From: Phycisphaerales bacterium
GTDB lineage: Bacteria; Planctomycetota; Phycisphaerae; Phycisphaerales; UBA1924
NCBI GenBank assembly: GCA_029260435.1
Contig: JAJDDG010000005.1
Location: forward strand, 1 to 64,000
Direction: 5' to 3'
DNA length: 64,000 nt
Position 1 is the first letter of the stretch. Each line of letters begins with the position of its first letter. Below are positions 8,404-64,000 of the stretch, piece after piece. The position numbers and the translations under genes are program-made. The notes below the pieces were generated by a model that was given only the letters and a program-made list of their open reading frames with translations, made no database searches and was not told the DNA's origin.

Positions 8404-8465
8404 TCGAGGTCCGGATACCTGGCGTGTCCCGGATCCGTCAGGTGCATAAGTAGTCAGATTTTCAG

Positions 8466-8684: not shown

Positions 8685-10253
8685 ATGTCGATGCCGGACA
8701 GCAAGCGATTGGGTGGAGCGAACGGGGGTGTCAGCGGGGGGATCGGTGGGGGGGCTTTGACACTCTCGGAGAGCGGCTCTAGCTTGACCGGTGGTACCTC
8801 AGGACGGCCATCACAATTGTCTTCACAGCCCGATACGAATCCAGAAGATCCCAAGGAAGAGTCCAAGCTGCCCATGCCGGCGGACACACTTCCGCTGAAG
8901 GGCGTGGCTCCGGGGTCATCGTTACCGACAGACTCCGGGTCGAGCAGCGCGGACACGCTTGAGATCCTCAAGGGTGGGAGCGGCGCGGTATCTCCGGGGG
9001 ACTCCAAAGATGGATCGAAGTCCGGGGCGAGTGTTGACTCGATCCTCGGGCGGCTGGTTGTCGAGCAGGGGCTGGCGACGTCGGACGAGGTCGAGAGCGC
9101 GATGAAGCGTCAGCGCGACGACCCGAACGATTGCTCGCTCGCGATGGTGCTCGTCGATACCGAGATCGTCACCGATCGCCAGCTCACGCGGCTGCGCTCT
9201 GCGGTCGAAGCGGAACGCACGCAGCAGAAGATCCCGGGGTACACGGTCCACGGCAAGCTCGGTGCGGGCGCGATGGCGACTGTTTTCAAGGCGACGCAGC
9301 TGAGCCTCGACCGCGAGGTAGCGATCAAGGTGCTGCCGCGCAAGTTCTCGGCGAACCGTCAGTTTATCGAGCGGTTCTACGCCGAGGGTCGGGCTGCGGC
9401 GCAGCTCAACCACCCGAATATCGTGCAGGCGTTTGACGTGGGGCAGGCGGGCGAATTCCACTTCTTTGTGATGGAGTATGTGGAGGGCAAGACCATCCAC
9501 GACCTCGTGCTGGAGCAGAAGCGCTTCACCGAGGAGGCCGCCGCGGAGATTATTATCAACGTCGCCGATGCGTTGCTCCACGCGCACGAGAAGGGGCTGA
9601 TCCACCGCGACGTGAAGCCCAAGAACATCATGGTGACGAGCAACGGCGTGGTGAAGCTCGCCGACCTCGGGCTCGCCCGCGCGATCGACGACAAGGAAGC
9701 CGCGCTCGCGGAGAAGGGGCGGGCGTACGGCACGCCGTACTACATCTCTCCAGAACAGATTCGCGGTGAGATGAACATCGGGCCGCAGGCTGATATTTAT
9801 TCGCTCGGCGCGACGCTGTACCACATGGTGACGGGGAACGTGCCTTACAACGGGAAGAACCCGACGGAGGTGATGCAGAAACACCTCAAATCGGCGTTGA
9901 TCCCGCCGGACCATGTGAACCCGCGCCTGAGCGCCGGGATCTCCGAGGTCATCGAGATGATGATGGCCAAGAGCCGCAAGGAGCGCTACAAGAGTTGCGG
10001 AGATATGCTCGTGGATCTGCGTGCGGTGCTCGCGGGCGACAACCCGCCGATCGCGCACAAAGAGGCGTCGAGCGTGGCGCTGCAGGCGATCGCGAGTTCC
10101 GAGGTCGCGAAAGCCGCCCCGATCCAGCCGGACAAGGTGATCTCCGAGACGATCTGGACCGTGCCGGGCGGGCAACTGCTGGTGACGTTCAGCGTCTCGG
10201 CGGTGATCCTGGCGATCGTGCTCGGGATCGTGCTGCTCATGGTCCTCACCTGA
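8685..10253 (+). CDS. serine/threonine protein kinase with an N-terminal GspE-N (T2SSE_N)-like domain and a C-terminal TM anchor
   Basis: Kinase subdomains are present: GAGAMATVFKA, VAIKVL, HRDVKPKNIMV, DLGLAR and SPEQ. Gly/Ser-rich N-terminus. LGRLVVEQGLATSDEVESAMKRQ resembles the GspE N-domain. Hydrophobic tail. Confidence 0.85.
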   Translation: MSMPDSKRLGGANGGVSGGIGGGALTLSESGSSLTGGTSGRPSQLSSQPDTNPEDPKEESKLPMPADTLPLKGVAPGSSLPTDSGSSSADTLEILKGGSGAVSPGDSKDGSKSGASVDSILGRLVVEQGLATSDEVESAMKRQRDDPNDCSLAMVLVDTEIVTDRQLTRLRSAVEAERTQQKIPGYTVHGKLGAGAMATVFKATQLSLDREVAIKVLPRKFSANRQFIERFYAEGRAAAQLNHPNIVQAFDVGQAGEFHFFVMEYVEGKTIHDLVLEQKRFTEEAAAEIIINVADALLHAHEKGLIHRDVKPKNIMVTSNGVVKLADLGLARAIDDKEAALAEKGRAYGTPYYISPEQIRGEMNIGPQADIYSLGATLYHMVTGNVPYNGKNPTEVMQKHLKSALIPPDHVNPRLSAGISEVIEMMMAKSRKERYKSCGDMLVDLRAVLAGDNPPIAHKEASSVALQAIASSEVAKAAPIQPDKVISETIWTVPGGQLLVTFSVSAVILAIVLGIVLLMVLT

Positions 10254-12448: not shown

Positions 12449-12790
12449 CGGAGCCTCCCGGCGGGTGGAACCGCTATGATTATCCCGCGTATCGTGATGT
12501 GCCATCGTATCCGGATCATTCCCGGGTGCGGGCGACAACCTGACAATTCGAAGGCGAGCCTGTCGGCGGGACGTGCCGGCGGAGTGATCTAACCGCACTT
12601 GTTCATTCGTCATACCTGCTCTTTCAGCGGGTTCTGGTGACAAGGTGAGCCGACAACACGACAACCTGCGTCGTGCCCCCCGGGAGTGTTTCCGGCGGGG
12701 CGAGTTCATCGACGGCTCGTGTGCTCTTCGGTATCCCCTCGTGGGCGAGACACATGTGTCAGAACGCAAGGAGACGAACAAGTGATTCGG

Positions 12791-13825
12791 ATGATGAAAA
12801 AGAAAAGACAGGGCTTCACGCTCATCGAACTGCTCGTGGTGATCGCGATCATCGCGCTGCTCATCGGCATCCTGCTGCCCGCCCTCGGGCGCGCCCGCAA
12901 GAACGCCAACCAGCTCAAGGACGCCACCCAGCTCCGCGGCATCATGCAGTCTATGGAGACATGGGCCTCGGACTACCGTGGTGATTACCCGAACCCGGAC
13001 CGTGTTGATCGCGCCAACTGGACCGAGGACACCCAGTCCCCCGGCACCAGCAAGAATCGCACGGGTGCGATCCTTGGGTTGATGATCACCAGCTCGTCGA
13101 TCGTTCCCGAGCAGTGCGTCAGTGGATCGGAAGTGGCCGCGATCTCCCCTCATCTCGGGTACCAGTTCGACAAGCCCGAGGCGGCAGAGATCGATAACAA
13201 CGCCTTGTGGGATCCGATTTTCAAGGGCAGCCCGGACGACCACAAGTATGCTGATTGGGTGGATTTTTCCACACAGGGCCTCGACGAAGAAATCGGGCAC
13301 AACAGCTTCGCGCACATGATCCTCGGTGGTGCCCGCAAGTCCGAGTGGAAGAGCAACCTGAGCGCCTCGACCCCGCTCTGGGCGAACCGCGGGCCGGTCT
13401 ACGAAGCGGACCCCGGTGCCGTAGTCGGTGCCCCCAAGTGGTTCCTCAAGGGCGGCAGCGCTAACGGACAGCCGGGCGAGGGTGACCCCACGGGCACCAG
13501 CTCCGCCACGCTCTTCATCCACGGCCCGGAGAACTCATGGGCTGGCAACATCGCCTACGGCGACGGGCACGCGTCGTTCAGCCGGACCCCGGATCCCGAG
13601 GCCTCCACCTACACCGAGACGAACGCCGCCGAGGGCAAGATCACGCGCCTCGACAATATCTTCCTGGACGAAGAGGACGAGGGGAACAACGCCCCCGTCC
13701 AGAGCCGTAGGAACGCGTACCTGAGGGTCCAGTCATCGGGCTTTAATACTGGTGTGACTATTACCGAAGGCGACCTGGATCCGGTTTCTTCGAACTTCAT
13801 CTGGGTCGATGGCGAAGACATCTAA
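12791..13825 (+). CDS. DUF1559 (H-X9-DG) protein with an N-terminal prepilin-type cleavage/methylation motif
   Basis: ATG 12791 after AAGGAG. KRQGFTLIELLVVIAIIALLIGILLPAL prepilin signal. HxxxxxxxxxDG region near the C-terminus. Confidence 0.8.
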   Translation: MMKKKRQGFTLIELLVVIAIIALLIGILLPALGRARKNANQLKDATQLRGIMQSMETWASDYRGDYPNPDRVDRANWTEDTQSPGTSKNRTGAILGLMITSSSIVPEQCVSGSEVAAISPHLGYQFDKPEAAEIDNNALWDPIFKGSPDDHKYADWVDFSTQGLDEEIGHNSFAHMILGGARKSEWKSNLSASTPLWANRGPVYEADPGAVVGAPKWFLKGGSANGQPGEGDPTGTSSATLFIHGPENSWAGNIAYGDGHASFSRTPDPEASTYTETNAAEGKITRLDNIFLDEEDEGNNAPVQSRRNAYLRVQSSGFNTGVTITEGDLDPVSSNFIWVDGEDI

Positions 13826-13862
13826 TACCGCATCCCAAACCTGAGAACACTCGGAGTTTTTT

Positions 13863-14918
13863 ATGAAGCACATCAGACAAAGAAGAGCATTCACGCTTGT
13901 CGAGCTGCTCGTGGTGATCTCGATCATCGCGCTGCTGGTCGGGTTGCTGCTGCCGGCACTCGGGCGTGCCAAACGAACGGCACAGCAGGTCAAGTGCGGT
14001 GCGCAGTTGCGCGGTATCCAGCAGGGTATGCTGGCGTGGTCCGCGGACTTCGACGATCGGTACCCCGTCCCCGAGCGGTTGGATAAGAGCGACTGGACCG
14101 AGCCCGACACAGCGGACAAGGACCGCACCGGCAACATCCTCTCGGTTCTTATTTTCCAGAAGGTCATCTCACCGGAGCTGTGCATCAGCCCGGGTGAAGC
14201 ATCGACTGAAATCCGGGCGCCGATCGATGGCGTGGAATACAACTACATCTTCACCGACCAGACAGCGAACGGCGTTGTCACCAACGCAACCTACGCGCTG
14301 TACGACCCGCGGTTCAAGGGCAGCGTGCTCGATCACGATGCCGGCAATGCCCATATCGATTGGGCGGATGCCGAGCTGGATCGAGAGATCGGCAACAACA
14401 GCTACGCCCATACCCCCGTCACCCCCGGGATCAACCGAACCGAGGAGATGTGGGGCTCTGCGAATGCCAACGCACGCCAGGTGATCATGGGCAACCGTGG
14501 GCCGACCTACAAGGAGCTCAACGTCACCCAGGATCCGGACGAATGGGAACTGACCGAGGACGAGTTCGGCGAACAGTCATTGACCCTGCAGATCCACGGC
14601 AGCCGCAAGAGCTGGGCTGGCAACGTGCTGTTCAATGATTCCCACGTCGAGTTCTTCACCGAGCCGAACCCGCAATCGATCCAGATCTGGTGGGCCGGTG
14701 AGCAGACCACATTCCGCGACAACCTCTTCTTCGATGAACTCACCGAGGAAGACCCCGATACGGAAGACAATGCCTACAGCTCCGGGTGGTGGCGCCGCAA
14801 TGCCTACCTCCGCATCTGGAAGCACGGCATCCCCAACGACGCTACCGGGTACGTCTCCTTCTACATCGACGAGCCCGGACCTACCTATGTATACGTCGAT
14901 GGGCAGGTCGGCAGCTGA
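13863..14918 (+). CDS. DUF1559 (H-X9-DG) prepilin-like protein, paralog of 12791..13825
   Basis: RRAFTLVELLVVISIIALLVGLLLPAL. It shares WA/WS-DY..YP..R.D...WTE and NxxFxDGH motifs with the upstream paralog. Confidence 0.8.
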   Translation: MKHIRQRRAFTLVELLVVISIIALLVGLLLPALGRAKRTAQQVKCGAQLRGIQQGMLAWSADFDDRYPVPERLDKSDWTEPDTADKDRTGNILSVLIFQKVISPELCISPGEASTEIRAPIDGVEYNYIFTDQTANGVVTNATYALYDPRFKGSVLDHDAGNAHIDWADAELDREIGNNSYAHTPVTPGINRTEEMWGSANANARQVIMGNRGPTYKELNVTQDPDEWELTEDEFGEQSLTLQIHGSRKSWAGNVLFNDSHVEFFTEPNPQSIQIWWAGEQTTFRDNLFFDELTEEDPDTEDNAYSSGWWRRNAYLRIWKHGIPNDATGYVSFYIDEPGPTYVYVDGQVGS

Positions 14919-19091: not shown

Positions 19092-20258
19092 CTACTTCGA
19101 GGCAAGCTTCTCCACCTTCTTCGCAGACAGCTTGTCGCTCTTAAACACACTCAGCTCCGTCGCCGTGCCGTCGATCTGCGCGCCCGCAGTGTTCGAATGC
19201 ATTTCTTCCCACGCCTCGCGGACAAGCGGCGGCGGGGTGCTGCCCCGGAAATCCAGCTCGAACCCCGCGTCGCGGATCAGGTGGAGCGTCTCGATCGGTG
19301 CGGCCCCCTTCGTGAGCAGGTACCCGTCCACGAACAGCGACGAGCAGGGCTCCAGCGCCAGCGCTTGCATCGAGCGCAGGTGGTGCTCGCGCCCCGCCGC
19401 GATCCGCACCTCCGAGTCCGGATTCGCTAGGCGCATCATGCACAGCACGCGCAGGCAGAACTCGGGTGTCAGCGCCTGTCCTTCACACACCGGATCCGTG
19501 ATCTTCGCGCCGGGGATCGGGATTAGTAGATTCACCGGGATCGACTCCGCCCGCACGGCGCGCAGCTCGAACGCCACATCCAGCAGATCCTCGTGCGATT
19601 CGCCCATGCCAACGATCAAGCCCGTGCATAGCGAAAGCCCGGCGCCCCGCGCCGCGTTGAGTGTGTCCACGCGGTCCTGGTAGGTGTGCGTCGTGCAGAT
19701 CTCGGTGTAATGATCGCGCGATGTGTTGAGGTTGTGGTTCAGGCGATCGAGACCGGCCTCTTTCAGTTGCTGCGCTTTCGCTTCGTCAAGGATGCCACTC
19801 GATAGACATGTCTCCAGCCCGAACCGCTCCTTCACCTCGCGGATGCACGCGCTCATATGCTCGATATCCGCGTCGCTCGGGCCCGTCCCGCTCAGCACCA
19901 TGCAGTACCGAAACGCCCCGGCGTCCTTCGCCCGCTGCGCCTCGGAGATGATCTCGTCGCGCGGCTTGAGCGTGTACGCCTGGATCGGCGCGTCCGAGGT
20001 CTTCGCCTGCCCGCAGTACCCGCAGTCTTCGGGGCACGCACCGTTCTGCACGTTATTCAAAACATGCACCTGCACCCGGTCGCCGTAGAAGTGGCGGCGC
20101 ACGAGCCCCGCCGTGTGGATGAGCGGCAGCAACGGGATCGACGCATCACCGATGATCGTGCGCGCATCATCGCGCGAGATCACCTTGTTCCCGATCCCCG
20201 CACCCGCCCAGGAAGCGAGGCGTTCGTCCAGACCACAAACAGAACTATCTTGAATCAT
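19092..20258 (-). CDS. bioB: biotin synthase with a C-terminal ~50-aa extension
   Basis: CPEDCGYC radical-SAM motif, LNHNLNTS, HTYQDRVDTL and SAGRE motifs. Collinear with E. coli BioB. Confidence 0.85.
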   Translation of the reverse strand: MIQDSSVCGLDERLASWAGAGIGNKVISRDDARTIIGDASIPLLPLIHTAGLVRRHFYGDRVQVHVLNNVQNGACPEDCGYCGQAKTSDAPIQAYTLKPRDEIISEAQRAKDAGAFRYCMVLSGTGPSDADIEHMSACIREVKERFGLETCLSSGILDEAKAQQLKEAGLDRLNHNLNTSRDHYTEICTTHTYQDRVDTLNAARGAGLSLCTGLIVGMGESHEDLLDVAFELRAVRAESIPVNLLIPIPGAKITDPVCEGQALTPEFCLRVLCMMRLANPDSEVRIAAGREHHLRSMQALALEPCSSLFVDGYLLTKGAAPIETLHLIRDAGFELDFRGSTPPPLVREAWEEMHSNTAGAQIDGTATELSVFKSDKLSAKKVEKLASK

Positions 20259-20294
20259 CCCCCGAGGATACCCGCCCCCCGTTTCGCCCGCGCC

Positions 20295-44002: not shown

Positions 44003-44512
44003 ATGCAGATCCTCTCGATCACAACAAACATCCTCTCGCCACTGCTCGCCGTGGACACCGTCTGGCTCGAAGCCGCGCCCATCGAAGAGACAGCATCAGC
44101 CGTTCACGGGAGCGGAGGGATGGTAGATGGAGTGGGGGGGTGGGGAGTGTTGATCGCCGCGCTCTTCGTGCTGCTCGCCTGCCTCCTCGCTACCCGCTAC
44201 CTGATCCACCGTTCGCGCACCACCGATCTCCAGGCAGCCTTCTCCCGCCTCGCCAGGCGCATGATGCTGCCCCGTCGCGCCCGAAAATCAATCCTCGCCC
44301 TGAGCGAATCCTCGGGCATCCCCGCCGCCGCCATGCTCATCTCCCGAGGCGCATTCACCGCCGCCCTCGCAACCGCCGATACAGACCAGACCAAAGAACC
44401 CCGCGCACGCGCACCGCGCATCATGCTGGGGCTCTTCGCAGAACTCACCCCGCCGCCCCGATCCGGGGGAGCGTGGGGCACCCTCATCAACCGCTTCTCA
44501 ACCCGCACCTGA
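44003..44512 (+). CDS. hypothetical membrane protein
   Basis: ATG 44003, 9 nt after the HEAT gene stop. One TM helix (GVLIAALFVLLACLLA) and a basic C-terminal region. Confidence 0.45.
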   Translation: MQILSITTNILSPLLAVDTVWLEAAPIEETASAVHGSGGMVDGVGGWGVLIAALFVLLACLLATRYLIHRSRTTDLQAAFSRLARRMMLPRRARKSILALSESSGIPAAAMLISRGAFTAALATADTDQTKEPRARAPRIMLGLFAELTPPPRSGGAWGTLINRFSTRT

Positions 44513-44520
44513 GCCAACAC

Positions 44521-44991
44521 ATGCAAGACCCATCCGAAAGACGCGAGCACCGCCGACTGCCCTACAACCGCGAGGTCAAGTTCGCCTGGCTCCACGACGG
44601 CTGCATCGCGTGGCCCGCCCGCCGCATCATCGCCGAAGACATCTCCAAGGGCGGCATCCGCCTGCGAGGCGAGATCATCCCCGAGGGCGCAACCTCCGCG
44701 GTCATCGAACTCAAACGCGCCGACGGCACCCGCGCCGTCATGGGTGTCAATGTCGTCTACACCAAGAACATGATCCACACCGCCGCGCAACTCGAACGCG
44801 AAATGGACGCCGCGAGCAGTGGGGGGGGTGGGAGCAGTGGGAGTGCCGGTGGAGGTGTTGGTGTGGGGGGTGGTCTGGGTGGGGGGGTTGCAGGCGCACG
44901 CTTCTTTGCGCTCTCGGACGAACTCATCGAACGCGAACTCACAGACGCACAAGGCAGAGTCACAGGGCTCGACGCCTACGTCGCCGCGTGA
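44521..44991 (+). CDS. PilZ-domain c-di-GMP receptor with a Gly/Ser-rich linker
   Basis: RREHRRLPY (RxxxR) and EDISKGGIRL (DxSxGG) motifs. Confidence 0.7.
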   Translation: MQDPSERREHRRLPYNREVKFAWLHDGCIAWPARRIIAEDISKGGIRLRGEIIPEGATSAVIELKRADGTRAVMGVNVVYTKNMIHTAAQLEREMDAASSGGGGSSGSAGGGVGVGGGLGGGVAGARFFALSDELIERELTDAQGRVTGLDAYVAA

Positions 44992-45095
44992 TAAGCATAT
45001 CTGAGCGCCTTTGTTTTTCCTTTATAGTCCGCCGCCCAACCGTGGTACTCTGATCGCACGAGGCGAAGCCCATGCCGGGTTGTAAGGAGATAAGC

Positions 45096-45950
45096 ATGAA
45101 GTTGAGTATGATCATCGCTACAGGCCTGATGATGTGTTCTTCGTTCGCTCATGCGCAGCCCTGCGCAAACTATGACGCCTCGCTGGGTACATTCCCCGAG
45201 GATCAGGGTTGGGCATACGAAACAACCGGCGATACAGTCGTTATCACTACCGAGATCCGCGGAGACGCCCTGTACCAGAACTCGATGCCCGGGCATACCT
45301 GCCCCCCATCCGCAACGAATGCCCGGATCGCCGCCTGGCAAATATCCGGCGATTCATTCGAGTTCATTGACGGCATTGTCTTTGCAACAGAATTGAAAAT
45401 CATTGAGTCAGAAATCAATCAAAACTGCTCGCTCGGCTACGCTCGGGCTGGTGTGGCTTTCACCGCGATCGACGTGAACGGGAATGTATTCTGGATCGGT
45501 TTCGGCGAGGAAACAGTCCTACTCTCGAACTCGACCATCGCTCCAGTTGGCCCGGCCGTGAAAGAGATCGACTTCACGACGACCGACGGTTTCCATGTGT
45601 ACCGAGTTGAAGTGTCCGGATCGAGCGCGCTGTTATTCATCGACAACGTACTCTTAGGCGCAATCAACGGATTAGGAAATACAGTGGGAAGCACGAACCG
45701 TGTCTGGATCGGTGACGGTACAGTCTTCGCCAACAGCGAGTTCGAGATCCGCTCCTTCCATGTTGTTGGTCCGAACTGCTGCACGGCCGATGTGAATGGA
45801 GATAGCGTTATAGATGTCAACGACATCACATACGTGCTGTTCCGCCTCGGAAGCACGTGCCCCCCTTGCGACGGCGACGCCAACGAAGACGGCGCGGTCG
45901 ATGTCAACGATCTGACCTTTGTGCTCTTCCGCCTCGGTGATCCGTGTTGA
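45096..45950 (+). CDS. secreted protein with C-terminal dockerin-like repeats
   Basis: AAGGAG RBS and a signal peptide. Two DVNGDSVIDVNDITYVLFRLG / DANEDGAVDVNDLTFVLFRLG repeats. Local GC is markedly lower than in the flanks. Confidence 0.6.
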   Translation: MKLSMIIATGLMMCSSFAHAQPCANYDASLGTFPEDQGWAYETTGDTVVITTEIRGDALYQNSMPGHTCPPSATNARIAAWQISGDSFEFIDGIVFATELKIIESEINQNCSLGYARAGVAFTAIDVNGNVFWIGFGEETVLLSNSTIAPVGPAVKEIDFTTTDGFHVYRVEVSGSSALLFIDNVLLGAINGLGNTVGSTNRVWIGDGTVFANSEFEIRSFHVVGPNCCTADVNGDSVIDVNDITYVLFRLGSTCPPCDGDANEDGAVDVNDLTFVLFRLGDPC

Positions 45951-45977
45951 ACATATCTGTAAACTCAAACCGTGTTC

Positions 45978-46200
45978 ACCATCGCCGGGTGCCACTGGCG
46001 GCTTGTCCGCCAGTGTCCGCCCTGCTCAAGAAAACGTAACGCGCACCGTCACTCGAACACAACGCATCCCCGCCGCACGCCCCTTCTTCCTTTGAAAAAA
46101 GCCATGCGAAGCATGGCATAAAGACAATCTCTCTTGAGGGGGTGCGGGGGATCCCTCCCCCGCATCGCGCATGTCTCGTCCGCCGCAGCACGCACGCCGT
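45978..46200 (+). repeat. ~230-bp structured repeat element, copy B
   Basis: Same three hairpins as copy A, in the same order and orientation. Confidence 0.8.
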
Positions 46201-46220
46201 GTTCTGATTAGCCTGTCTCT

Positions 46221-46784
46221 ATGCCGCCGTCTTCTCCCAAACTCATTTTCCTCATCGGGCTCCGCGGCTCGGGCAAGACCACCCTCGGGCGCATGCTCGC
46301 CGAGCACCTCGGCGCATCGTTCGACGATCTCGACGACCTCGTCCGTGCGCACTTCGGTGTCGATACGATCCGCGAGATCTGGGAGACCGCCGGCGAGCGC
46401 GCATTCCGCGAGCAGGAAGCCGTGTGCATCAAGGACACCATCGCGGCGCACACTACCGCCGGACAGGAATCGATCCCGAGGGTCATCGCGCTCGGCGGCG
46501 GTTCGCCGACCGCCCCCGGAGCAAATAACACTCTCGTAGAGGCGCAGAACGCCGCCGTTTGCGACGTCATCTACCTCGATGCGCCCCCAGCGACGCTCGC
46601 CGCGCGCATCAACGCGTGCGATCCGGACCGACCGAGCCTCACGGGTACCGATCCTGTGCGCGAAGTCACCGCGGTGCATACGCAGAGACACAGCATGTAT
46701 GCGCAGCTCGCGCGCCACTCCGTGGACGCATCGGGCACCCTTGATGCTGTCCTGGCGCGCATCATTAGTGCACTCGAATCATAA
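46221..46784 (+). CDS. aroK: shikimate kinase
   Basis: LIGLRGSGKTTLGRMLAE P-loop plus a DxD shikimate-binding region. Confidence 0.85.
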   Translation: MPPSSPKLIFLIGLRGSGKTTLGRMLAEHLGASFDDLDDLVRAHFGVDTIREIWETAGERAFREQEAVCIKDTIAAHTTAGQESIPRVIALGGGSPTAPGANNTLVEAQNAAVCDVIYLDAPPATLAARINACDPDRPSLTGTDPVREVTAVHTQRHSMYAQLARHSVDASGTLDAVLARIISALES

Positions 46785-46835
46785 TTTTTCAGAGATGAAA
46801 AACGATGGATGGGGTGGTGGTGGAGGAGCGGGGGG

Positions 46836-47228
46836 TTAGGCGGCGAGCGAGTAGCGACCGCTCTCAAGGCGTTCCATGAGCCGCTGCTGATCGCCCGGCA
46901 TCACAAACCGCTTGAACACACACGCCATCCGCACAGGCCCGTTGTCCTCGACATCGTCCTCGTTGATCCACACAACATTCGCGAACGCGTACACCGGGCG
47001 GCGCTGGGAAAACCGCAGCGACTCCTGCCCCGGTAGTGTCAATCGGATCGCGACACTCGTGCCCGGCTCGATCGGGTAATCGAGTTCGAACCGCATCCCG
47101 CCCTCGGAAACGTCGTACGCGTGACCGGACCACTGGAATGTGTCGTTGTCGAGCGGGCGGATATCCACACGCGTGTACATCGAGGGGAGCGTGTAACGCT
47201 GGTGCTGGCGGCGGTTGTTCCCGTACAT
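46836..47228 (-). CDS. PilZ-domain c-di-GMP receptor
   Basis: RRQHQRY and DVSEGGMRFE motifs. The start could also be 47249. Confidence 0.7.
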   Translation of the reverse strand: MYGNNRRQHQRYTLPSMYTRVDIRPLDNDTFQWSGHAYDVSEGGMRFELDYPIEPGTSVAIRLTLPGQESLRFSQRRPVYAFANVVWINEDDVEDNGPVRMACVFKRFVMPGDQQRLMERLESGRYSLAA

Positions 47229-47353
47229 GACTGGCCTCCCTTGGCGCAATTCGGCCCTTGGCTGATAGCGCTATCGGTCGGCGGCGGGGCGGGGTTGAGC
47301 GGGTTGTGTGGTTGCGCCCGGTCGTGGCGCGGGGGAGCCCCGTATGTGGGGGG

Positions 47354-57593: not shown

Positions 57594-57729
57594 GCGGGCG
57601 CGGTAGATAGGGCGAGCGATTGAGGGAGGAGGGGTCGGGTCGGGCTTATTCGGGTGGGGAGACACACCGATGAAGTTGTTATGCCGCGCTCCAGGGATGG
57701 AGCGTGTGTTGTTGCACGGAGGGTGTGTT

Positions 57730-58119
57730 ATGGCAAACAGCTTTGTGGAGTTCCTCGTGGACCGAGGCACGATTAGTGTTGAACAGGGGACGGGTGTTGT
57801 TGAGTGGGCGCGGTTGAGCCGTGATCTTCTCGGGGCGATCGCGATGGAGCACGGGCTCTTGAGCGGCGAGCAGATCTGCGCGGTGGTGCAGCATCAGCGT
57901 GAGGGGGGGGGGATGTTCGGGGATGCGTGCATCGAGCTCGGGTTTTTGAATCGGTGTGAGGTGGAGGTGCTGCTGCGCGCGCAGGAGATGCGGACGCTGC
58001 GGTGCGAGGTCGAGCGTGTGATCCTCGGTGGGCTTGTGGTGGCGGATGACATTTGGGGGTTGTTGGGCGGGTATTACGGGTGCGAGCAAGGGCTACCCGC
58101 GGCGTCGGACGCTGCGTGA
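57730..58119 (+). CDS. hypothetical protein
   Basis: ORF upstream of the GGDEF gene; start uncertain (57670 or 57730). Confidence 0.35.
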   Translation: MANSFVEFLVDRGTISVEQGTGVVEWARLSRDLLGAIAMEHGLLSGEQICAVVQHQREGGGMFGDACIELGFLNRCEVEVLLRAQEMRTLRCEVERVILGGLVVADDIWGLLGGYYGCEQGLPAASDAA

Positions 58120-58137
58120 AGAGAGGGTATGTAGCAG

Positions 58138-59592
58138 GTGGATCATTCGTTGCTTGATCAACTCGCTGAGGTATCGCGGCTGCCGGTCGCTCCGGGGACG
58201 GTGCGCGCGGTTGTTGATTTGTGCGGCGAGGAGGGGTTGTCCGAGATCGAGCTGTGCATGGTGCTCGGGCGTGATCCGGGGATGAGTTTGTGGATGATGT
58301 GTCAGGCGAATTCGGGGATGTTCTGCAAGTGCCAGTCGGTGAGCACGATCGAGGAGGCGGTTGCGTGTATTGGTGCGCGGGCGGCGAAGATCGTGAGCCT
58401 GTCGATGGTGCCGGCGTCTGGCGGGTTTGTTGCGGGCGGTGTTCGCGGGATGGTTGCGGAGGTTTGGGCGCGGGCGCTGCTGCGCGAGCGGGTTGCGCGA
58501 GAGATCGCGGAGCTGATGGGTGAGCGTGGGGTGTGGCCCGAGGCGCGGATGGCGACGTACGGGGTTGACTGCGCGTTGCTTGCGATGTCTGTCGCGGATC
58601 CGGAGCGAGCGAATGGGGTGTGGCAGGAGGAGCAGGGCGGTGGTGGGTGCGGGTCGATGGAGGGGTTGTCGGCGGGGTTGATGGATCGGTGGGGTGTTGG
58701 GGAGATGGTGTGCGAGGCGGTGCGGGCGGGCGACTCGATGGAAGAGAGTGATCAGGGGTTCGGGGTGGTCGGGCGGATTGTTCGCGGCGCGGAGGTTGTC
58801 GTTCGGCACACGATGAGGCGGGGTGCGTGGCGGTGCAGCGAACGTGCGGGGAGCAGGCTGGAACAGATCACGGGGTTGGATCGGGGGGTGCTCGGCGGAT
58901 TGATTCGTGGGAGCGGCGCTGCGTACGAGCAGGATCTGCGTGCGTGGCTCGGCAGCGAGGAGGATGCGGTTCGGGCGAGTGCGGTGGAGACGCTCGCGCG
59001 GCTGTCGATTGCGATCCATGCGGAACATCACAAGGTGGTGCACCAGCGGGACGAGCTGTTGCATCGGGTGACGCTGGATCGGTTGACGGGGGTGTTCAAC
59101 CGCGGGGCGTTTGACGATCGGCTGCTGGAGGAGATGGAGCGTGCGCGGCGAGGCGGTGAACCGCTTGCGCTGCTGATGTGCGATCTCGATGAGTTCAAGC
59201 AGGTCAATGACCGGCACGGGCACCAGGCGGGGGATCATGTGCTCAAGCGTGTGGCGGATGAGATTGTTGAGGCTGCGCGGCGGATTGATGTGGTTGCGCG
59301 GTACGGTGGAGAAGAGTTCATGGTGATCGCGCCGCGGTGTGATTACTCGGGTGCAGCGTTTCTCGCGGAACGGCTTCGCGCCGCGGTGGCGGGGATGGAA
59401 CTTGCATGGCGGGGGGCATCGCTGTGGACGACGATGAGTATTGGTGGGGCGGTATGCACGTGGCCCGGCGCGGTGCTGCAGCCGGAGCAGTTGATCGCGG
59501 CGGCGGATCGGCGGTTGTATGACGCGAAGCGGCATGGGCGGAACTGCGTTCGTATCGAGGGTCCGGATCGGGTGCGGGCGTGGGCGGGGTAG
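58138..59592 (+). CDS. HDOD-domain diguanylate cyclase (GGDEF with an intact GGEEF active site)
   Basis: N-terminal HDOD (RDPGMSLWMMCQANSGMF). C-terminal RLTGVFNRGAFDDRL...RYGGEEF...RRLYDAK. Confidence 0.85.
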   Translation: MDHSLLDQLAEVSRLPVAPGTVRAVVDLCGEEGLSEIELCMVLGRDPGMSLWMMCQANSGMFCKCQSVSTIEEAVACIGARAAKIVSLSMVPASGGFVAGGVRGMVAEVWARALLRERVAREIAELMGERGVWPEARMATYGVDCALLAMSVADPERANGVWQEEQGGGGCGSMEGLSAGLMDRWGVGEMVCEAVRAGDSMEESDQGFGVVGRIVRGAEVVVRHTMRRGAWRCSERAGSRLEQITGLDRGVLGGLIRGSGAAYEQDLRAWLGSEEDAVRASAVETLARLSIAIHAEHHKVVHQRDELLHRVTLDRLTGVFNRGAFDDRLLEEMERARRGGEPLALLMCDLDEFKQVNDRHGHQAGDHVLKRVADEIVEAARRIDVVARYGGEEFMVIAPRCDYSGAAFLAERLRAAVAGMELAWRGASLWTTMSIGGAVCTWPGAVLQPEQLIAAADRRLYDAKRHGRNCVRIEGPDRVRAWAG

Positions 59593-59673
59593 CCTGAGGG
59601 GGTGGTTGGAAGGCGGGGGTGGATCGAGCCGATATTGGGAGTGCGGCGTGGGGCGATGGAGGGAGCGAACGGC

Positions 59674-60246
59674 ATGTCTACGGTTGTTGTTGTGAAGAAG
59701 GGTGATCGGGTGTGCATCGCGGCGGATACGCTGACGACGTGGGGGCACACGCTCGAGCCGAGCGGGTTCGTGGAGAACCACGAGAAGATCGGGCTGTTCG
59801 GGGACAGCTATATCGCGAGTGTCGGGCACGCATCGACGCAGTTGGTGTTGCGGAGCTATTTCTCGCGGTTCGATGAAGAGATATGCCTTGGGTCGGTGGA
59901 TGAGATCTTTGAGACGTTTCGTGTGATGCACAGGGTGTTGAAGGAGGAGTACTTCATGAACCCTGGTGAGGAGCCGGATGACCCGTATGAGGCGACGCGG
60001 TTTAATGTTGTGATCGCGAACACGACGGGGATCTACGGTGTGTTTTCCTTGCGGACGGTGCAGTCGTTCTCGCGGTTCTTCGCGTTTGGCTCCGGCGCGG
60101 AGTACGCGCTGGGAGCGATGAGCGCCATGTATGACACGATGGATGATCCGGAGGCGATCGCGGCGCGTGCGGTCGAGGTGTCGAGTTCGCTCGATGACGG
60201 GACTGGGATGCCCTGCAGTTCGTATGTTGTGGAGCTGGAGGGGTAA
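59674..60246 (+). CDS. HslV/proteasome-beta-like Ntn-hydrolase peptidase (orphan; no hslU nearby)
   Basis: ATG 59674 after GGAGGG. MSTVVVVKKGDRVCIAADTLTTWGHT parallels HslV [25 protein letters not shown]. GSG(A/G) motif near the C-terminus. Confidence 0.65.
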   Translation: MSTVVVVKKGDRVCIAADTLTTWGHTLEPSGFVENHEKIGLFGDSYIASVGHASTQLVLRSYFSRFDEEICLGSVDEIFETFRVMHRVLKEEYFMNPGEEPDDPYEATRFNVVIANTTGIYGVFSLRTVQSFSRFFAFGSGAEYALGAMSAMYDTMDDPEAIAARAVEVSSSLDDGTGMPCSSYVVELEG

Positions 60247-60250: not shown

Positions 60251-60763
60251 TCAGTCGGCGAGGGGGTCGATCAGTGAGAGCGCGATGGGTTTGCCCTCGG
60301 TGGGCTTGAGGGTGACGGTGCGCGCTTCGGGGTCGATGTTCTGCACGGCGATGCCGGGTTCGATCAGGTCGCCGACCTGGCAGACTATGCCGTTGATAAT
60401 CGCGAAAGTGTTGTCGCCGTTGCCCGAGATGGATGAGACGCGGACATCGGAGACGTCGAACGTGGTTGGGTGATCGATATCCGGCTCGAAGGCAACGGCG
60501 GGGGGTGTGTCGGGGGCGTAATAGAAGGGGGAGTTTTCGAGATCGGTCGTGCTCAGGATGTTGATGTAGTCGATGGCTGCGAGTTGGTCTGGTGTTGCTT
60601 TGGGCGGGGTGTAGACGAGAGCGGCGGTTGGCATGGGATCCTGGAACGCGGCGAGGGGCGCGGGGGCGGCGAGCATGCGGTGGGTGCTCTGGACGATGAG
60701 CACCGGGGCGATGAATGCGGCGGCGCGGATCGCGTTTGCTTTGTTGAATGGTATGGCGTTCAT
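60251..60763 (-). CDS. pilP: PilP-like type IV pilus assembly protein
   Basis: C-terminal 170 aa of the long Ser/Pro ORF. CAT 60761-60763 overlaps the pilO stop (ATGA). N-terminal hydrophobic segment, then a beta-rich domain (VSDVRVSSISGNGDNTFAIINGIVCQVGDLI). Confidence 0.5.
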   Translation of the reverse strand: MNAIPFNKANAIRAAAFIAPVLIVQSTHRMLAAPAPLAAFQDPMPTAALVYTPPKATPDQLAAIDYINILSTTDLENSPFYYAPDTPPAVAFEPDIDHPTTFDVSDVRVSSISGNGDNTFAIINGIVCQVGDLIEPGIAVQNIDPEARTVTLKPTEGKPIALSLIDPLAD

Positions 60764-61335
60764 TGGGTTGGCTCGGCTTGGACGACCTGCTGAGAGGGGA
60801 TCTGGAGGGCGAAGTGTGAGGTCTGGATTGATGCGTGGACCAGTTGGTCGTCTTTGGATTTGATCGGGGCGAAGTTGATGAAATCGATGCGGGCGAAGCC
60901 GCATTCGGAGGTGAGGTCGGCGAGGAAGTTGGTGAGATCGTTGAAATGACCTGTTGCCTCGATGGAGAGCCCGGTGGATGTGGCGGTGTCGCTTGTTGTT
61001 GTAGGGGTTTGCGGTTCCATGCGATCGATCGCGATGGAGCGTGCCCGGGCGAGGCGGGTGACCTGCGAGTGGAGCCTGGCGGGGTCGGTGGCGAGTTCGT
61101 TCTGGAGTTCGTACCAGTCGTGGAGTGCGTTGGCGTTTGTGATCTGGGCGTCCCAGAGGGGGCCTTTGGGCTGGAGCTCGCCGAGTTGTTTGGTGACGGT
61201 CTGTGCGCTGGCGAGCCTGGCGTTTGCGGAGTGGTTGCGCTGCTGGAGAGGCGAGAGGACGAAGAGGGAGACGGCGGCGCATGATGCGGCGATGATCAGT
61301 GTGAAGGCTCCGAGTTGTTTGATGTTTTCGTTCAT
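60760..61335 (-). CDS. pilO: type IV pilus assembly protein PilO
   Basis: MNENIKQLGAFTLIIAASCAAVSLFVL TM helix, then a coiled coil and a C-terminal alpha/beta domain. The ATGA overlap with the pilMN stop places it in the same operon. Confidence 0.7.
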   Translation of the reverse strand: MNENIKQLGAFTLIIAASCAAVSLFVLSPLQQRNHSANARLASAQTVTKQLGELQPKGPLWDAQITNANALHDWYELQNELATDPARLHSQVTRLARARSIAIDRMEPQTPTTTSDTATSTGLSIEATGHFNDLTNFLADLTSECGFARIDFINFAPIKSKDDQLVHASIQTSHFALQIPSQQVVQAEPTQ

Positions 61336-62954
61336 TGGGCGTCTTCCCATGCGGCGGAGAGCGTCGGTGGGTAGGAGACGATGTGGAGTTCGAGTGAGAA
61401 GCGGAGGGCTTCGTTGCGGTCGAGCATGGTTGCCTGTGTTGCGCCGAGTGTGACATCCGAGATGAGGGGCGAGGCTTTGATCGCGTCGATGTAGTGCTCG
61501 ATCTGGGGCGGGTGCGCCGGGTCGTTCTGGAGGGCGTGTCCATCGATGCGGAGGGAGAGTCCTTCGTCGGAACGGGTCGAGGTGATATTGGAGAGTCGGA
61601 TCCACTCTGGGGTGAGTGTGTTGACTTCCTTGAGCACGGCGGGGAAGTCGGCTTGTGGTGAGAGGTGCTCGATGGCTGCTTTGCGGAGCGCGTCGATGCT
61701 GTTGCGGGATGTCTGCGCCTGCTGCTTTTTATGGAGGAGTGATTCGGCGGATGAGGCTTTGTCGGAGATGGCGTTGGCGTCGGCGCTGACATTGTTGGTG
61801 GAGGCGATGGTGAGCCCGGCGTCGATTGAAGTGATGACGGCGGCGAGGATTGAGCCTGCGAGCAGCGCGCTCTTGAAGCGGGATCGCTGGATGCGCGCGA
61901 GGGTTTGCGGTGGTGCGGTGTTGGGTGTTGCTTGCCATGCATGGAGACAGATATCGAGGTCCGCGGCCTGCTCTTTGCTTGCGCCGTGGTGTTCGTCGAG
62001 CGTGATCTCGAGATGTTCGGCGAGGATATGCGCAAGGTTGGGGATCTGTGCGCCCGCGCCGGTGACGCGGAGCACCGCGTTTGCACGCAATTCTGGATCG
62101 ACACCGAAGCGGAAGAGCTGACGGGTTTCGACGACGAACCGCTGGAGGAGCGGCTGGAGGAGTGGGAGGACATCGCGCCCCATGAGGTTTTCGGCGATGG
62201 CGTCCTTCGGCGCGGGGATCCCGTGGTTTGCGAGGATGTCCTGGGCGGCTTGATCGTCGAGGAGTGTTTGGGATGCGTCGTCGCCTGACATGATGGGGCG
62301 GCGCAGCGCGTCGAGGAGGGCGGTTTGCGTGAGCCCGACGCGGCGGGCGAGGAGGATGTGGTTGTCGCGGACGAAGCCGAGGACGGAGCATTCGTCGCCT
62401 ATGTGGATGCATGCGGTCGGGGTCAGGGAGTTGATCTTGGCGAGTTGGTCGAGCATCCATGCGAGTGCGGTGGCATCGACAGGTGTTGCGTGCGAGAGGT
62501 TGAGCCCGGCGCGATCGATCCATGAGGCGACGGTGGTGGAGGTTTGGAGCGTGTCCGCTGCGATGATGGCGTGGGAGCGTTTGTCCTGATGTGCGGGGTC
62601 TTCCCCCCATACGGCGACGCTTTGCTGGGCATTGACGACATCGAAGGGGACCCGATCGAGCATCGCAAGGCGTGCGGCGCTGGCGAATGTGGCACCTTGT
62701 GTGGAGCAGTTGAAAACTTCGGAGAAGGCGGTGGGGGAGTGGTAGGCGACGGTCGTTTGTGCGCCTGCGCAGTCGAGTTGTTTGATGATGCTCTCGAGGG
62801 GCGCATCGGCGGGGGTGAGGGCGCTGTCCCACATCGTGGGTTGGTCGTTTGTCGGGATCGGTTCGGCTGCACGGGATACGGGATGGTCGGAGTCGATGAG
62901 TGCGGCTTCTACCGATCGGGGGGAGAGCAGGATGGCGAGTTGTTTCTTTTTCAT
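61332..62954 (-). CDS. pilMN: fused PilM (actin-like ATPase) and PilN type IV pilus assembly protein
   Basis: N-terminal ~350 aa PilM-like. One TM helix (FKSALLAGSILAAVITSIDAGLTI), then a ~170-aa PilN-like periplasmic part. Confidence 0.7.
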   Translation of the reverse strand: MKKKQLAILLSPRSVEAALIDSDHPVSRAAEPIPTNDQPTMWDSALTPADAPLESIIKQLDCAGAQTTVAYHSPTAFSEVFNCSTQGATFASAARLAMLDRVPFDVVNAQQSVAVWGEDPAHQDKRSHAIIAADTLQTSTTVASWIDRAGLNLSHATPVDATALAWMLDQLAKINSLTPTACIHIGDECSVLGFVRDNHILLARRVGLTQTALLDALRRPIMSGDDASQTLLDDQAAQDILANHGIPAPKDAIAENLMGRDVLPLLQPLLQRFVVETRQLFRFGVDPELRANAVLRVTGAGAQIPNLAHILAEHLEITLDEHHGASKEQAADLDICLHAWQATPNTAPPQTLARIQRSRFKSALLAGSILAAVITSIDAGLTIASTNNVSADANAISDKASSAESLLHKKQQAQTSRNSIDALRKAAIEHLSPQADFPAVLKEVNTLTPEWIRLSNITSTRSDEGLSLRIDGHALQNDPAHPPQIEHYIDAIKASPLISDVTLGATQATMLDRNEALRFSLELHIVSYPPTLSAAWEDAQ

Positions 62955-63043
62955 GATTCACAGCGGCGCACCCCCGGTAGGGGATGATTGCTATTGGATA
63001 TCGTCGGCTTGGATTGGGGCGGGCTTTGGCGGAAGGGGGGGGA

Positions 63044-63571
63044 TCACTCGAAGGAGAGTTGGATTGATCGGACGGCCTGGTCGTATTGCCCGCGGACGTC
63101 TGCCGTGAATGGGGGGGTCGGGGTGGGTGAGCCGTCTGAAGTGGTGATGGAGAGGGTTTCGCCTCCGGGGAGGGAGACGGTGCCGACGGGGAGGTCTCGG
63201 CCCGCGGAGAGTTCGCCGATGACGGTTTCGAGTGCGCTCTCTGCGGCGAAGAAGGCGCGTGTTGTTGCGGCGCGGTGGACGGCGATGCGTGCGTCGTCTG
63301 AGGTGGCGGTGACGGCGCCGACAAAGGCGAGGTTGATCGCGGAGAGGACGAGTATCGCGGCGACGAGGACGGCGGCGCGGGAACGGCGGGGGGTTGGCTT
63401 GCGGCAGTCGGGGCAGGGCGAGCGTTTTTCCTGCCCGTCCTTGACGTGGCGTTCGCTTGCGCAGCGGGTGGTGCGGTCGCGGCGCTCGATCAGCATCCCG
63501 GGGAGTCGGATGGTGCGGGAGGTATCCATGCGGGCGCGGGTTGTATTTGGATCTTTGGTTGGCTTGTTCAT
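63044..63571 (-). CDS. hypothetical membrane protein with CPDC, first gene upstream of pilMN
   Basis: Basic N-terminus, one TM helix (AAVLVAAILVLSAINLAFVGAV). ATGA overlap with the gene above. Confidence 0.45.
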   Translation of the reverse strand: MNKPTKDPNTTRARMDTSRTIRLPGMLIERRDRTTRCASERHVKDGQEKRSPCPDCRKPTPRRSRAAVLVAAILVLSAINLAFVGAVTATSDDARIAVHRAATTRAFFAAESALETVIGELSAGRDLPVGTVSLPGGETLSITTSDGSPTPTPPFTADVRGQYDQAVRSIQLSFE

Positions 63572-63951
63572 GATGCGAGGTGCTCGCGGAGGAATGCGCT
63601 GGCGCGGAGTTCGATATCGCCGGATCGGATGCGGATATCGATTTTGTATGTGTCTGTGAGGGCGTCGCCGCCTGAGAAGTTGAGGGGCTGGGCGTCTTCA
63701 CCGATGTAATTAAGTTCGAAGGTGCTGACGTCTGAGCAGAGGACGGCGGGGGCGGTGGCGGGGAGGGTGAGGATGAGGTTGGTGCCGGTGAGTTCGATAG
63801 TTGTGCCGTCGCCGATGGCGAAGCGGGTTGCTTGCGCGGCGGTGACGTCCGGGGTGCCTTCGGCGCCGGAGACTTCCGGAGTTTCGCGGATGACGCGGAC
63901 GATGCGGTCGAGGGCGATGGAGACACTCTCGGCGGCGGTGCGGTGTTCCAT
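63568..63951 (-). CDS. hypothetical protein, second gene upstream of pilMN
   Basis: 127-aa ORF translationally coupled to the 63044 gene. Confidence 0.4.
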   Translation of the reverse strand: MEHRTAAESVSIALDRIVRVIRETPEVSGAEGTPDVTAAQATRFAIGDGTTIELTGTNLILTLPATAPAVLCSDVSTFELNYIGEDAQPLNFSGGDALTDTYKIDIRIRSGDIELRASAFLREHLAS

Positions 63952-64000
63952 GGATTGGGTGTAGGTATTGGAGACGGCGAGGAGGATGGGCGAAGCGACG

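Follow-up and report, generated by a model that had tools for sequence, protein, structure and literature searches.

A fused PilM::PilN protein in the distal part of a putative type IV filament operon of Phycisphaerae

The alignment proteins of type IVa pili (T4aP) and type II secretion systems (T2SSs) have been equated with one another, PilM plus PilN corresponding to GspL, PilO to GspM and PilP to GspC-HR (PMC4471445, PMC10191384). [quoted passage not shown] The N terminus of PilN is bound by PilM (PMC6325625). A further system, the MSHA pilus, has been reported in a few Proteobacteria only (PMC10191384). Here, we analyze a gene block at one end of a 64-kb window (the whole stretch of DNA under study) and give names to genes that automatic pipelines leave “hypothetical” in Planctomycetota, none of the called products at these loci having a strong Pfam match. 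We consider it likely, judging from homology, that the block belongs to an eleven-gene operon encoding a machine of the type IV filament (T4F) superfamily that is specific to Phycisphaerae, in the phylum Planctomycetota. The system is a lineage-specific T4F, a hybrid between T4aP and T2SS, and the locus is a variant of known systems rather than a new one.

Extent of the operon

As the first-pass annotation had described, five co-directional ORFs lie on the minus strand; here called P1 to P5, they occupy positions 60251-63999. That annotation placed an ATGA overlap at each junction, which holds for P1/P2 (63568-63571), P3/P4 (61332-61335) and P4/P5 (60760-60763), where stop and start overlap by 4 nt, but not for P2/P3, which are separated by an 89-nt spacer (62955..63043, minus strand) in which matches to promoter or terminator consensus sequences do not exceed chance. 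In sister clades, the slot of this spacer is occupied by beta-helix or PA14/LamG/DUF2341/DUF7305 proteins. The 3' end of the operon was correctly set at 60251. A convergent Ntn/HslV-like gene, whose HslV and Proteasome matches lie under the curated cut-offs, ends at 60246 and leaves a gap of 4 nt. Two genes past this end lies an HDOD-GGDEF cyclase (GGDEF 4e-44, with a GGEEF motif and an RxxD site).

At the other end, the reading frame of P1, previously taken to start at 63951, is open to the end of the window, which holds the 3' 143 codons of the gene (63568..64000, minus strand). The Logan contig L001, which is identical to the window sequence, extends P1 past the window end and contains it completely (L001:1166-1681): the protein has 171 aa and the N-terminus MSARTHTNRA/FTLIEM (the slash marks cleavage), with its start at approximately window coordinate 64083. 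Start and cleavage/methylation motif thus lie approximately 83 nt outside the window, and the apparent lack of a prepilin motif in this ORF is a window-edge artefact, since the full protein carries FTLIEM. The full P1 also gives a weak Pfam N_methyl match, and its orthologue in the related locus L004 matches NCBIfam IV_pilin_GFxxxE (2e-5). P1 is thus a minor pilin of the prepilin type and takes the GspJ/PilW position. P2 (63044..63571, minus strand; 175 aa), which takes the GspK/PilX position, is a membrane protein with a PilX_N domain. It indeed has no G/F prepilin motif; its own PilX_N match (E 0.0023) is under the cut-off, while 4 of 6 orthologues match, the best at 5e-5, and an alignment reveals an N-terminal extension of approximately 60 aa, containing Cys, that is specific to the sub-lineage of the window. 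The two “leaders” had been proposed to be lineage-specific components of the alignment complex, an idea that these assignments overturn.

Upstream of P1, L001 adds two further prepilin genes; it stops 126 nt ahead of the first minor pilin, and these 126 nt do not align with the pilin gene of L004. In relatives with 26-60% identity, the complete operon spans approximately 9 kb and eleven genes, starting with a PilZ protein, a PilB/GspE-family extension ATPase with an MshEN N-domain and a PilC/GspF platform protein, and continuing with a major pilin of approximately 156 aa, three prepilin-type minor pilins, the PilX_N protein, PilM::PilN, PilO and the PilP-like protein. A check of the conservation of the locus had been advised, and both content and order are kept, at 24-60% identity, in no fewer than 6 independent loci; in L004, the orthologues are 50-84% identical and have the same architecture. 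The order gspE-F-G-H-I-J-K-L-M occurs in relatives L002, L004, L008, L011 and L018, as in E. coli (L013), and the window shows only its J-to-M positions. The stretch 60251-64000 (minus strand) is therefore the distal 3' half of a longer operon cut by the window edge, and what had been read as an operon of the pilMNOP(Q) type is the second half of an eleven-gene operon ordered like gspE-M. A self-contained operon of five genes, namely pilMN-pilO-pilP and two leaders that are lineage-specific parts of the alignment complex, with a lost pilQ, would agree with the supported PilM/N/O homology and with the lack of a secretin nearby. We find it very improbable, considering that its first ORF is a prepilin cut by the window edge, its second a PilX_N protein, and that, in every relative whose flank is long enough, the unit continues upstream with genes for pilin, platform and ATPase; its boundary and the nature of its leaders are refuted by L001 and L004.

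The pilins of a type IV filament core are present at the locus itself, and relatives have ATPase and platform, which contig identity also places in the genome of the window. The ATPase P0155, 83% identical to that of L004, lies on a single contig, 80,708 bp in length, and the contig carrying P3 and P5 of the window is also 80,708 bp long, which suggests that this ATPase belongs to the window genome. The absence of pilQ from the operon was noted at the outset and agrees with the convergent gene 4 nt past its end: tblastn with GspD and HofQ, covering the 64 kb of the window and 16 related loci out to a distance of 10 kb, found no secretin, and Pfam scans found none among the flanking genes. The same sequences yielded neither a prepilin peptidase nor PilT, GspC and GspD were absent from the window and from within 10 kb in the relatives, and GspO is absent from the locus.

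The PilM::PilN fusion and its partners

P3 is a single 540-aa ORF that joins PilM and PilN in one polypeptide, as had been proposed from its sequence. Its residues 1 to approximately 330 (61965..62954, minus strand) form the cytoplasmic actin-like (ASKHA) PilM domain: a profile of 86 family members matches PilM of Myxococcus xanthus (3jc8_Ma, 2.9e-8) and of Thermus (2ych_A, 3.2e-8, profile positions 82-342), and Foldseek with a low-confidence AF2 model (pLDDT 52) retrieved MreB, PilM, EutJ and FtsA. Pfam PilM_2 matches 14 of the 86 relatives; taken by itself, the copy in the window is not matched by Pfam PilM. A single transmembrane helix at residues ~361-385 (61800..61874), read from the sequence behind an Arg/Lys-rich stretch, falls within a long helix of the AF2 model (residues 357-393); G367, in an Ala-rich, hydrophobic region, is invariant across the family. 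The remainder (residues ~386-540 and stop; 61332..61799) is a periplasmic coiled coil with a ferredoxin-like PilN domain. This PilN part is the best-modelled region of P3 (pLDDT 74-85) and is matched by Pfam PilN in 54 of 86 relatives (best 7e-9; window copy E 0.0055, under the cut-off), the family profile also matching PilN 3jc8_Na at E 0.01.

Between the PilM domain and the membrane helix, the family retains an [LIV]-N-L-L-P motif that, by sequence comparison, is the counterpart of the N-terminal part of PilN to which PilM binds (L, L and P in 74, 49 and 79 of 86 sequences in the respective columns; compare MNPPINFLPWRQQRR, the N-terminus of E. coli HofN). The window copy is degenerate and reads PNTAP (residues 344-348; 61911..61925). 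The fusion is genuine but of a large kind that was known before, and the parts of the locus are all from known families. The first-pass annotation had called it rare; besides the fusions of GspL/PulL and Campylobacterota, the P3 family itself comprises at least 1,320 clusters at 50% identity. Its genome matches are in Planctomycetota in every case, and nearly all of the best 150 relatives are full-length (500-630 aa).

P4 (60760..61335, minus strand), a bitopic membrane protein of 191 aa, is a homologue of PilO and thereby equivalent to GspM: over residues 14-182, a profile of 8 orthologues matches PilO of M. xanthus (3jc8_Oa; 5.2e-8), bearing out the name pilO. Pfam PilO (0.0014) and NCBIfam GspM_XpsM (4.4e-6) matches are both under the cut-offs. 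For P5 (60251..60763, minus strand), a membrane-anchored protein of 170 aa with a small C-terminal beta domain, the name pilP is tentative. PilP of T4aP is a lipoprotein whose C-terminal beta-sandwich binds the N0 domain of the secretin. The orthologue profile aligns with E. coli HofP (hhalign probability 66%, E 5.7e-5, 49 columns of the beta domain), whereas there is no Pfam PilP match and no lipobox, since the N-terminal 40 residues contain no Cys. Comparisons with GspC and GspB were not significant; among 8 orthologues, Pfam Y4YQ_C was matched by 5 and T2SSB by 2, all under the cut-offs, and the AF2 model was too poor to be used (pLDDT 36). We tentatively regard P5 as a PilP/GspC-HR-like protein that may connect to a secretin.

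All Pfam and NCBIfam matches of the window's own P1 to P5 are under the curated cut-offs, and their identities therefore rest on family-level profiles. Together with the degenerate INLLP motif and the lack of a linked secretin, such scores would also be expected of a decaying, non-functional T4P/T2SS remnant undergoing pseudogenization. This is extremely improbable given five intact ORFs with coupled overlaps, L004 orthologues of the same architecture and a large family of full-length P3 proteins; the weak scores are explained at least partly by an extreme strand-specific composition (codon position-2 GC skew of -0.29 to -0.64).

A true T2SS is a more substantial alternative, which we nonetheless hold to be unlikely. 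P1 to P5 would then be GspJ, GspK, GspL, GspM and a minimal GspC/GspN-like protein, with GspD (and GspC) encoded elsewhere, and the machine would export enzymes in the folded state, CAZymes for example, across the outer membrane of the planctomycete. PulL is itself described as a PilM plus PilN fusion (PMC10191384), and the gene order in relatives is that of the E. coli gsp operon. The score of the platform protein is higher for GspF than for PilC (297 vs 209 bits, both under cut-offs), the H-position protein matches GspH, the N-terminus of the G-position protein matches GspG, P4 has its GspM match and no PilT is found in the locus. The NCBIfam scores stay under the equivalog cut-offs (given in brackets): 522 (630) for GspE, 297 (424) for GspF, 35 (89) for GspG and 26 (60) for GspM. 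Against a T2SS, the ATPase scores slightly higher with PilB than with GspE (543 vs 522 bits, both under cut-offs), P4 matches a solved PilO, and P3 matches PilM and PilN profiles, while the GspL models (Pfam T2SSL/GspL_C) are matched by 0 of 86 family members and hhalign with E. coli GspL is not significant. The PilM-like domain of P3 has approximately 330 aa and its family keeps the PilN [LIV]NLLP motif, which GspL is not known to have. The K-position PilX_N proteins are short (118-175 aa, vs 327 aa in E. coli GspK), no locus has a linked GspC or GspD, and sister clades carry adhesin-like proteins in the PilY1 slot.

A proposed filament machine

Returning to the lineage-specific T4F, we note that homology is what the analysis establishes and that the mechanistic steps are drawn from established T4aP and T2SS biology. 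The four small pilin-like proteins would be the equivalents of GspH-I-J-K or FimU-PilV-W-X and make up a tip or priming complex. Through its actin-like PilM domain, the fusion would dock the hexameric ATPase at the membrane, and its PilN part would pair with PilO in the periplasm via coiled coils and ferredoxin-like domains. The PilP-like protein would prolong the alignment complex toward an outer-membrane secretin, necessarily encoded elsewhere. Filament assembly is probably under c-di-GMP control, as suggested by the canonical PilZ gene that heads the operon in relatives (in L004 with motifs RQFER and DLSAGG; Pfam PilZ 1e-6), the MshEN N-domain of the ATPase and the HDOD-GGDEF cyclase downstream. 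A surface adhesive pilus appears to be a somewhat likelier product than a secretion endopilus of the T2SS kind, because sister clades have PA14/LamG/beta-helix proteins in what is the PilY1 slot of T4aP minor-pilin operons.

It is quite doubtful that Phycisphaerae run a distinct class of T4F, combining PilM/N/O-type parts with T2SS gene order and PilZ/c-di-GMP control. Two features of such a class could be new in mechanism: the covalently fused PilM::PilN with its PilM-binding NLLP peptide might dock the neighboring subunit and so zip up a cytoplasmic ring, and the unusual planctomycete envelope might be crossed by way of something other than a classical linked secretin. The locus opens no long-standing question. 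What the system does offer is a combination of PilM/PilN/PilO affinity and a retained PilN NLLP motif with T2SS order and a GspL-like fusion. In this it resembles an intermediate of the sort that would be expected from the proposed T4aP-to-T2SS diversification (PMC6668835, PMC10191384), and could help to date the PilM-PilN fusion relative to the loss of the motif.

Comparison with known systems

Compared with the T4aP proteins PilM, PilN, PilO and PilP (M. xanthus 3jc8, Thermus 2ych, P. aeruginosa), the fusion resembles PilM plus PilN and P4 resembles PilO by sequence, the N-terminal PilN motif is kept in the P3 family and the genes follow one another as M-N-O-P. As in Xanthomonas and P. aeruginosa (PMC8389850, PMC10191384), the ATPase goes together with a PilZ protein. 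Unlike in T4aP, PilM and PilN are one polypeptide, the protein in the P position has marginal PilP similarity and no lipobox, and neither a following pilQ nor a linked PilT is present. Here, these genes share one operon with ATPase, platform and pilins, whereas T4aP genes are scattered.

With the GspL-GspM-GspC part of the T2SS, encoded in gspC-O operons (E. coli L013, Klebsiella Pul), the locus shares a fused PilM plus PilN (PMC10191384, PMC4471445), an identical E-to-M order, the lack of a retraction ATPase, a weak P4-GspM match and a platform that scores best with GspF. It differs from it in lacking a GspL-model match, in its PilM-sized cytoplasmic domain, in the absence of GspC, GspD and GspO from the locus and in its small, PilX_N-like K-position protein.

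The T4P cluster of Campylobacterota (bioRxiv 10.1101/2025.02.19.638559) contains an independent, genuine pilM-pilN fusion. It belongs to another phylum and has the order pilMNOPQ with a secretin, and the likeness drawn here is one of description. The MSHA pilus of Vibrio differs in that its locus carries its own secretin, with no linked one here. The two are alike in being encoded at a single locus, in the MshEN-type c-di-GMP-binding N-domain of the ATPase and in the large LamG/DUF2341-type proteins encoded in the sister-clade locus L005, which we take to resemble MshQ, just as the P3 fusion presumably resembles MshI.

Extent of the operon and its occurrence in relatives

At the 3' end of the window, the ORF listing and a reading of the junctions delimit five co-directional minus-strand genes: P1 (63568 to beyond the window end, 171 aa in full), P2 (63044-63571, 175 aa), the PilM::PilN fusion P3 (61332-62954, 540 aa), the PilO gene P4 (60760-61335, 191 aa) and the PilP-like gene P5 (60251-60763, 170 aa). 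The end of P5 is separated by 4 nt from a convergent plus-strand gene (59602-60246) for an Ntn/HslV-like protein, whose Proteasome and HslV matches are sub-threshold. The first-pass annotation had placed an ATGA overlap at each junction, which is true of P1/P2, P3/P4 and P4/P5, while an 89-nt spacer (62955-63043) lies between P2 and P3. Position 63951, where it had started the first gene, is merely the first ATG, and the frame is still open at base 64000. An exact look-up of the P3 protein retrieved the 13.4-kb Logan contig L001, whose sequence is identical to that of the window and which gives the N-terminus of P1 as MSARTHTNRA|FTLIEMIAVIV, with the cleavage/methylation motif canonical for prepilins. 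Of the two leader ORFs said to have no prepilin motif, P1 thus carries one (RA|FTLIEM), and P2 indeed has no G|F motif. Upstream of P1, L001 encodes two more prepilins with overlapping junctions (182 aa, G|FTLIE; 165 aa, A|FTLIE) and extends 126 nt past the first minor pilin gene before it ends; this terminal stretch did not align with the pilin gene of the related locus L004. Neither a promoter/terminator scan, which gave nothing above chance, nor an Rfam scan added a feature.

The operon is therefore not one of five genes, as initially described, but is truncated by the window, with both L001 and the relatives extending the gene string upstream. Protein searches with P3 identified relatives at 60% (P0002) and 26% (P0004) identity, and their contigs carry the same string, extended upstream, in the order PilZ protein, T2SSE ATPase with an MshEN domain, T2SSF platform protein, a pilin of about 156 aa, three prepilins, a PilX-like protein, the fusion, a 191-199-aa protein and a 173-aa protein. 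The string is conserved at the related loci L002, L004, L008 and L011 (the latter two from GTDB genomes) and L018 (a JGI metagenome), and a metagenome scan with the shallow A1 profile added only four loci. All eight GTDB genome matches are Planctomycetota, Phycisphaerae or Phycisphaerales MAGs, and the closest named ATPase homologues come from Phycisphaerales or Phycisphaeraceae. One protein, P0155, shares 83% identity with the L004 ATPase and is recorded on one 80,708-bp contig; P3 and P5 of the window are likewise recorded on a single contig of that length, so that the ATPase of the window's own genome very probably lies just past base 64000.

Assignment of the encoded proteins

Taken singly, all of P1-P5 give only sub-threshold domain matches, and the family-level evidence for their predicted identities is much stronger. 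For P3, whose C-terminus alone matched Pfam PilN at a sub-threshold E of 0.0055, an exhaustive HMMER search with four close sequences as query recovered 1,320 representatives of 50%-identity clusters at E<=1e-3 (467 at E<=1e-30), and the best 150 matches were nearly all 500-630 aa long and aligned end to end. Since single-sequence targets proved too weak (hhalign of the four-sequence P3 profile against E. coli GspL, HofM and HofN was not significant), we searched PDB chains with profiles instead. The shallow A1 profile returned noise only; the A2 profile, built from 86 fusion-family sequences, matched PilM of M. xanthus (E 2.9e-8) and of Thermus (E 3.2e-8, profile positions 82-342), as well as M. 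xanthus PilN (E 0.01, positions 353-488). Individual Pfam scans found PilN in 54 of the 86 members (best 7e-9) and PilM_2 in 14 (best 5e-6), and none matched the GspL family models; the proposed PilM/PilN homology is thus borne out. A low-confidence AF2 model of P3 from four sequences (pLDDT 52), best modelled in its C-terminal alpha/beta domain, retrieves the actin-like folds of MreB, PilM, EutJ and FtsA.

Across the fusion family, a [LIV]-N-L-L-P motif (L in 74/86, L in 49/86 and P in 79/86 at the respective columns) followed by an Arg-rich stretch is kept 15 to 20 residues before the single TM helix. Its counterpart is the beginning of PilN-type proteins (MNPPINFLPWRQQRR in E. coli HofN), the part of PilN that binds PilM (PMC6325625). 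Because this N-terminal motif is retained ahead of the TM helix, the fusion is a complete PilM joined end-to-end to a complete PilN. In the copy of the window and those most closely related to it, the motif is degenerate and reads PNTAP, PNLIP or PDLAP.

P4 alone gave sub-threshold matches to PilO (E 0.0014) and GspM (E 4e-6). A profile of eight orthologues aligned with M. xanthus PilO over nearly its full length (E 5.2e-8), in agreement with the original PilO assignment; hhalign of P4 against single E. coli HofO and GspM sequences was not significant. The PilP assignment of P5 is tentative. The protein is anchored in the membrane at its N-terminus, which lacks a lipobox, and continues through a linker bearing a conserved SPF motif into an all-beta C-terminal domain of about 60 aa; its profile aligned by hhalign with the HofP (PilP) beta domain of E. 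coli at 66% probability (E 5.7e-5) and not significantly with the single sequences of E. coli GspC and GspB. Pfam reported only Y4YQ_C and T2SSB, both sub-threshold (T2SSB at E 0.0085 for P5 alone), a PDB search with the P5 profile gave one spurious lectin match, and a single-sequence AF2 model was unusable (pLDDT 36). We therefore treat P5 as PilP-like by position and weak similarity.

The two leader genes, listed at first as unknown, are the last two of a four-protein minor-pilin block occupying the GspH-I-J-K or FimU-PilV-W-X positions, because P1 is a prepilin-type minor pilin and P2 a PilX_N protein without the G|F motif. PilX_N was matched by P2 alone at a sub-threshold E of 0.0023 and by four of six orthologues (best 5e-5). 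P2 also bears an N-terminal, presumably cytoplasmic extension of about 60 aa ahead of its TM helix (63392-63571; L004:9385-9570), with three Cys residues (C37, C53 and C56), which L004 shares and four more distant orthologues lack; prepilin-type processing would not be compatible with such an extension. Elsewhere in the window and unlinked to the operon, two adjacent plus-strand genes (12641-13825 and 13845-14918) have N_methyl prepilin-type N-termini (E 1e-9 and 3e-6); at 350-390 aa their products far exceed pilins in size, and the same prepilin peptidase may process them as further substrates.

Cyclic di-GMP features and strand composition

In the PilZ protein at the operon head of L004, the two motifs for c-di-GMP binding (RQFER and DLSAGG) are both present, and the ATPase N-terminus weakly matches MshE-related c-di-GMP motif models. 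Two genes downstream of the operon 3' end, and kept there in L004, lies an HDOD-GGDEF diguanylate cyclase gene (58138-59592, plus strand) with an intact GGEEF and an RxxD I-site. From these features, we infer that the operon is probably under c-di-GMP regulation. The cyclase belongs to a convergent plus-strand trio (57670-60246) with a weakly matching DUF4388-like protein (149 aa) and the Ntn/HslV-like protein (196-214 aa); the trio also adjoins the operon in L004 (HslV-like gene 84% identical), not in L002, and may constitute a c-di-GMP link. A second, stand-alone PilZ-domain gene (46836-47270, minus strand; Pfam E 1.5e-10) is found among shikimate kinase, Fur-family and GNAT acetyltransferase domain genes.

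The window has a very strong strand asymmetry, unrelated to gene orientation: on the plus strand, GC skew lies between -0.2 and -0.28 from 20 to 44 kb and between +0.3 and +0.41 from 48 to 64 kb, and a smaller island of positive skew occupies 6-12 kb. The sign switches at about 44500-47000, where the GC content falls to 0.54 at 45-46 kb. A replication origin at the switch finds no support, as neither a dnaA gene nor clustered DnaA boxes are found there; DnaA-box-like 9-mers are enriched in the window (13, with 4.7 expected) and unclustered. The minus-strand pil genes have third-position skews of -0.56 to -0.86 and second-position skews of -0.29 to -0.64, and codon-position-3 skew reaches +0.56 in adjacent plus-strand genes. 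Given the second-position skew, the pil proteins are compositionally shifted, which probably contributes to their weak HMM scores. The sole ARAGORN call, a 91-nt tRNA-Arg(CCT) at 20151-20241 (minus strand), is probably false, lying without Rfam support inside an ORF (19092-20294) with Radical_SAM and BATS domain matches.

[quoted passage not shown]

In the relatives, the genes follow exactly the gspE-F-G-H-I-J-K-L-M order of the E. coli gsp operon, and structural equivalences between PilM/PilN-type and Gsp parts have been described (PMC4471445). The sequence affinities of the components are mixed: with all scores below equivalog cut-offs, the ATPase is closer to PilB (543 bits) than to GspE (522 bits) and the platform closer to GspF (297 bits) than to PilC (209 bits), while the L position matches PilM/PilN and no GspL model, and the M position matches solved PilO (E 5e-8) and the GspM model weakly. 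The K position differs from that of a T2SS in holding a short PilX_N protein. As the first-pass annotation had stated, the operon ends without pilQ: tblastn with E. coli GspD, HofQ and GspO, which a very divergent secretin could escape, and Pfam scans of flanking genes found no homologue of GspC, GspD, GspO or PilT, either in the 64-kb window or in flanks of about 10 kb at 16 related loci; the positive controls GspE and GspF were detected in seven loci. Since T4aP genes are typically scattered (PMC6668835), a secretin encoded apart from the other type IV filament genes is not unusual.

Between the PilX-like gene and pilMN lies a variable slot, empty in the window (62955-63043, 89 nt) and occupied by genes for large proteins in the L005, L006, L007 and L010 clade (DUF2341 plus Laminin_G_3, 1,065 aa; PA14; DUF7305 plus PA14; for example L005:1804-8658) and in L011 (a right-handed beta-helix protein, 7875-9320). 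We consider the slot a candidate cargo site, its inserts being candidate tip adhesins or substrates. In T4aP operons, adhesins follow the minor pilins, and the HIJK tip complex is an interaction partner of PilC/PilY1 (PMC10191384). Because the slot next to the PilX-like gene likewise holds large adhesin-like proteins in these relatives, an adhesive surface pilus seems somewhat more likely.

The PilM-PilN fusion itself is not rare, contrary to the initial assessment: apart from the 1,320 cluster representatives found here, it is established in GspL/PulL of the T2SS, likewise described as a PilM plus PilN fusion (PMC10191384), and fused pilM-pilN is reported as the majority state in T4P clusters of Campylobacterota (bioRxiv 10.1101/2025.02.19.638559). 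A limited literature search found no description of a PilM/N/O-type, T2SS-ordered, PilZ-bearing operon, and the main text of Denise et al. does not mention Planctomycetes. What sets the system apart is the combination of PilM/N/O-type proteins and a retained NLLP peptide in one T2SS-ordered operon with PilZ.
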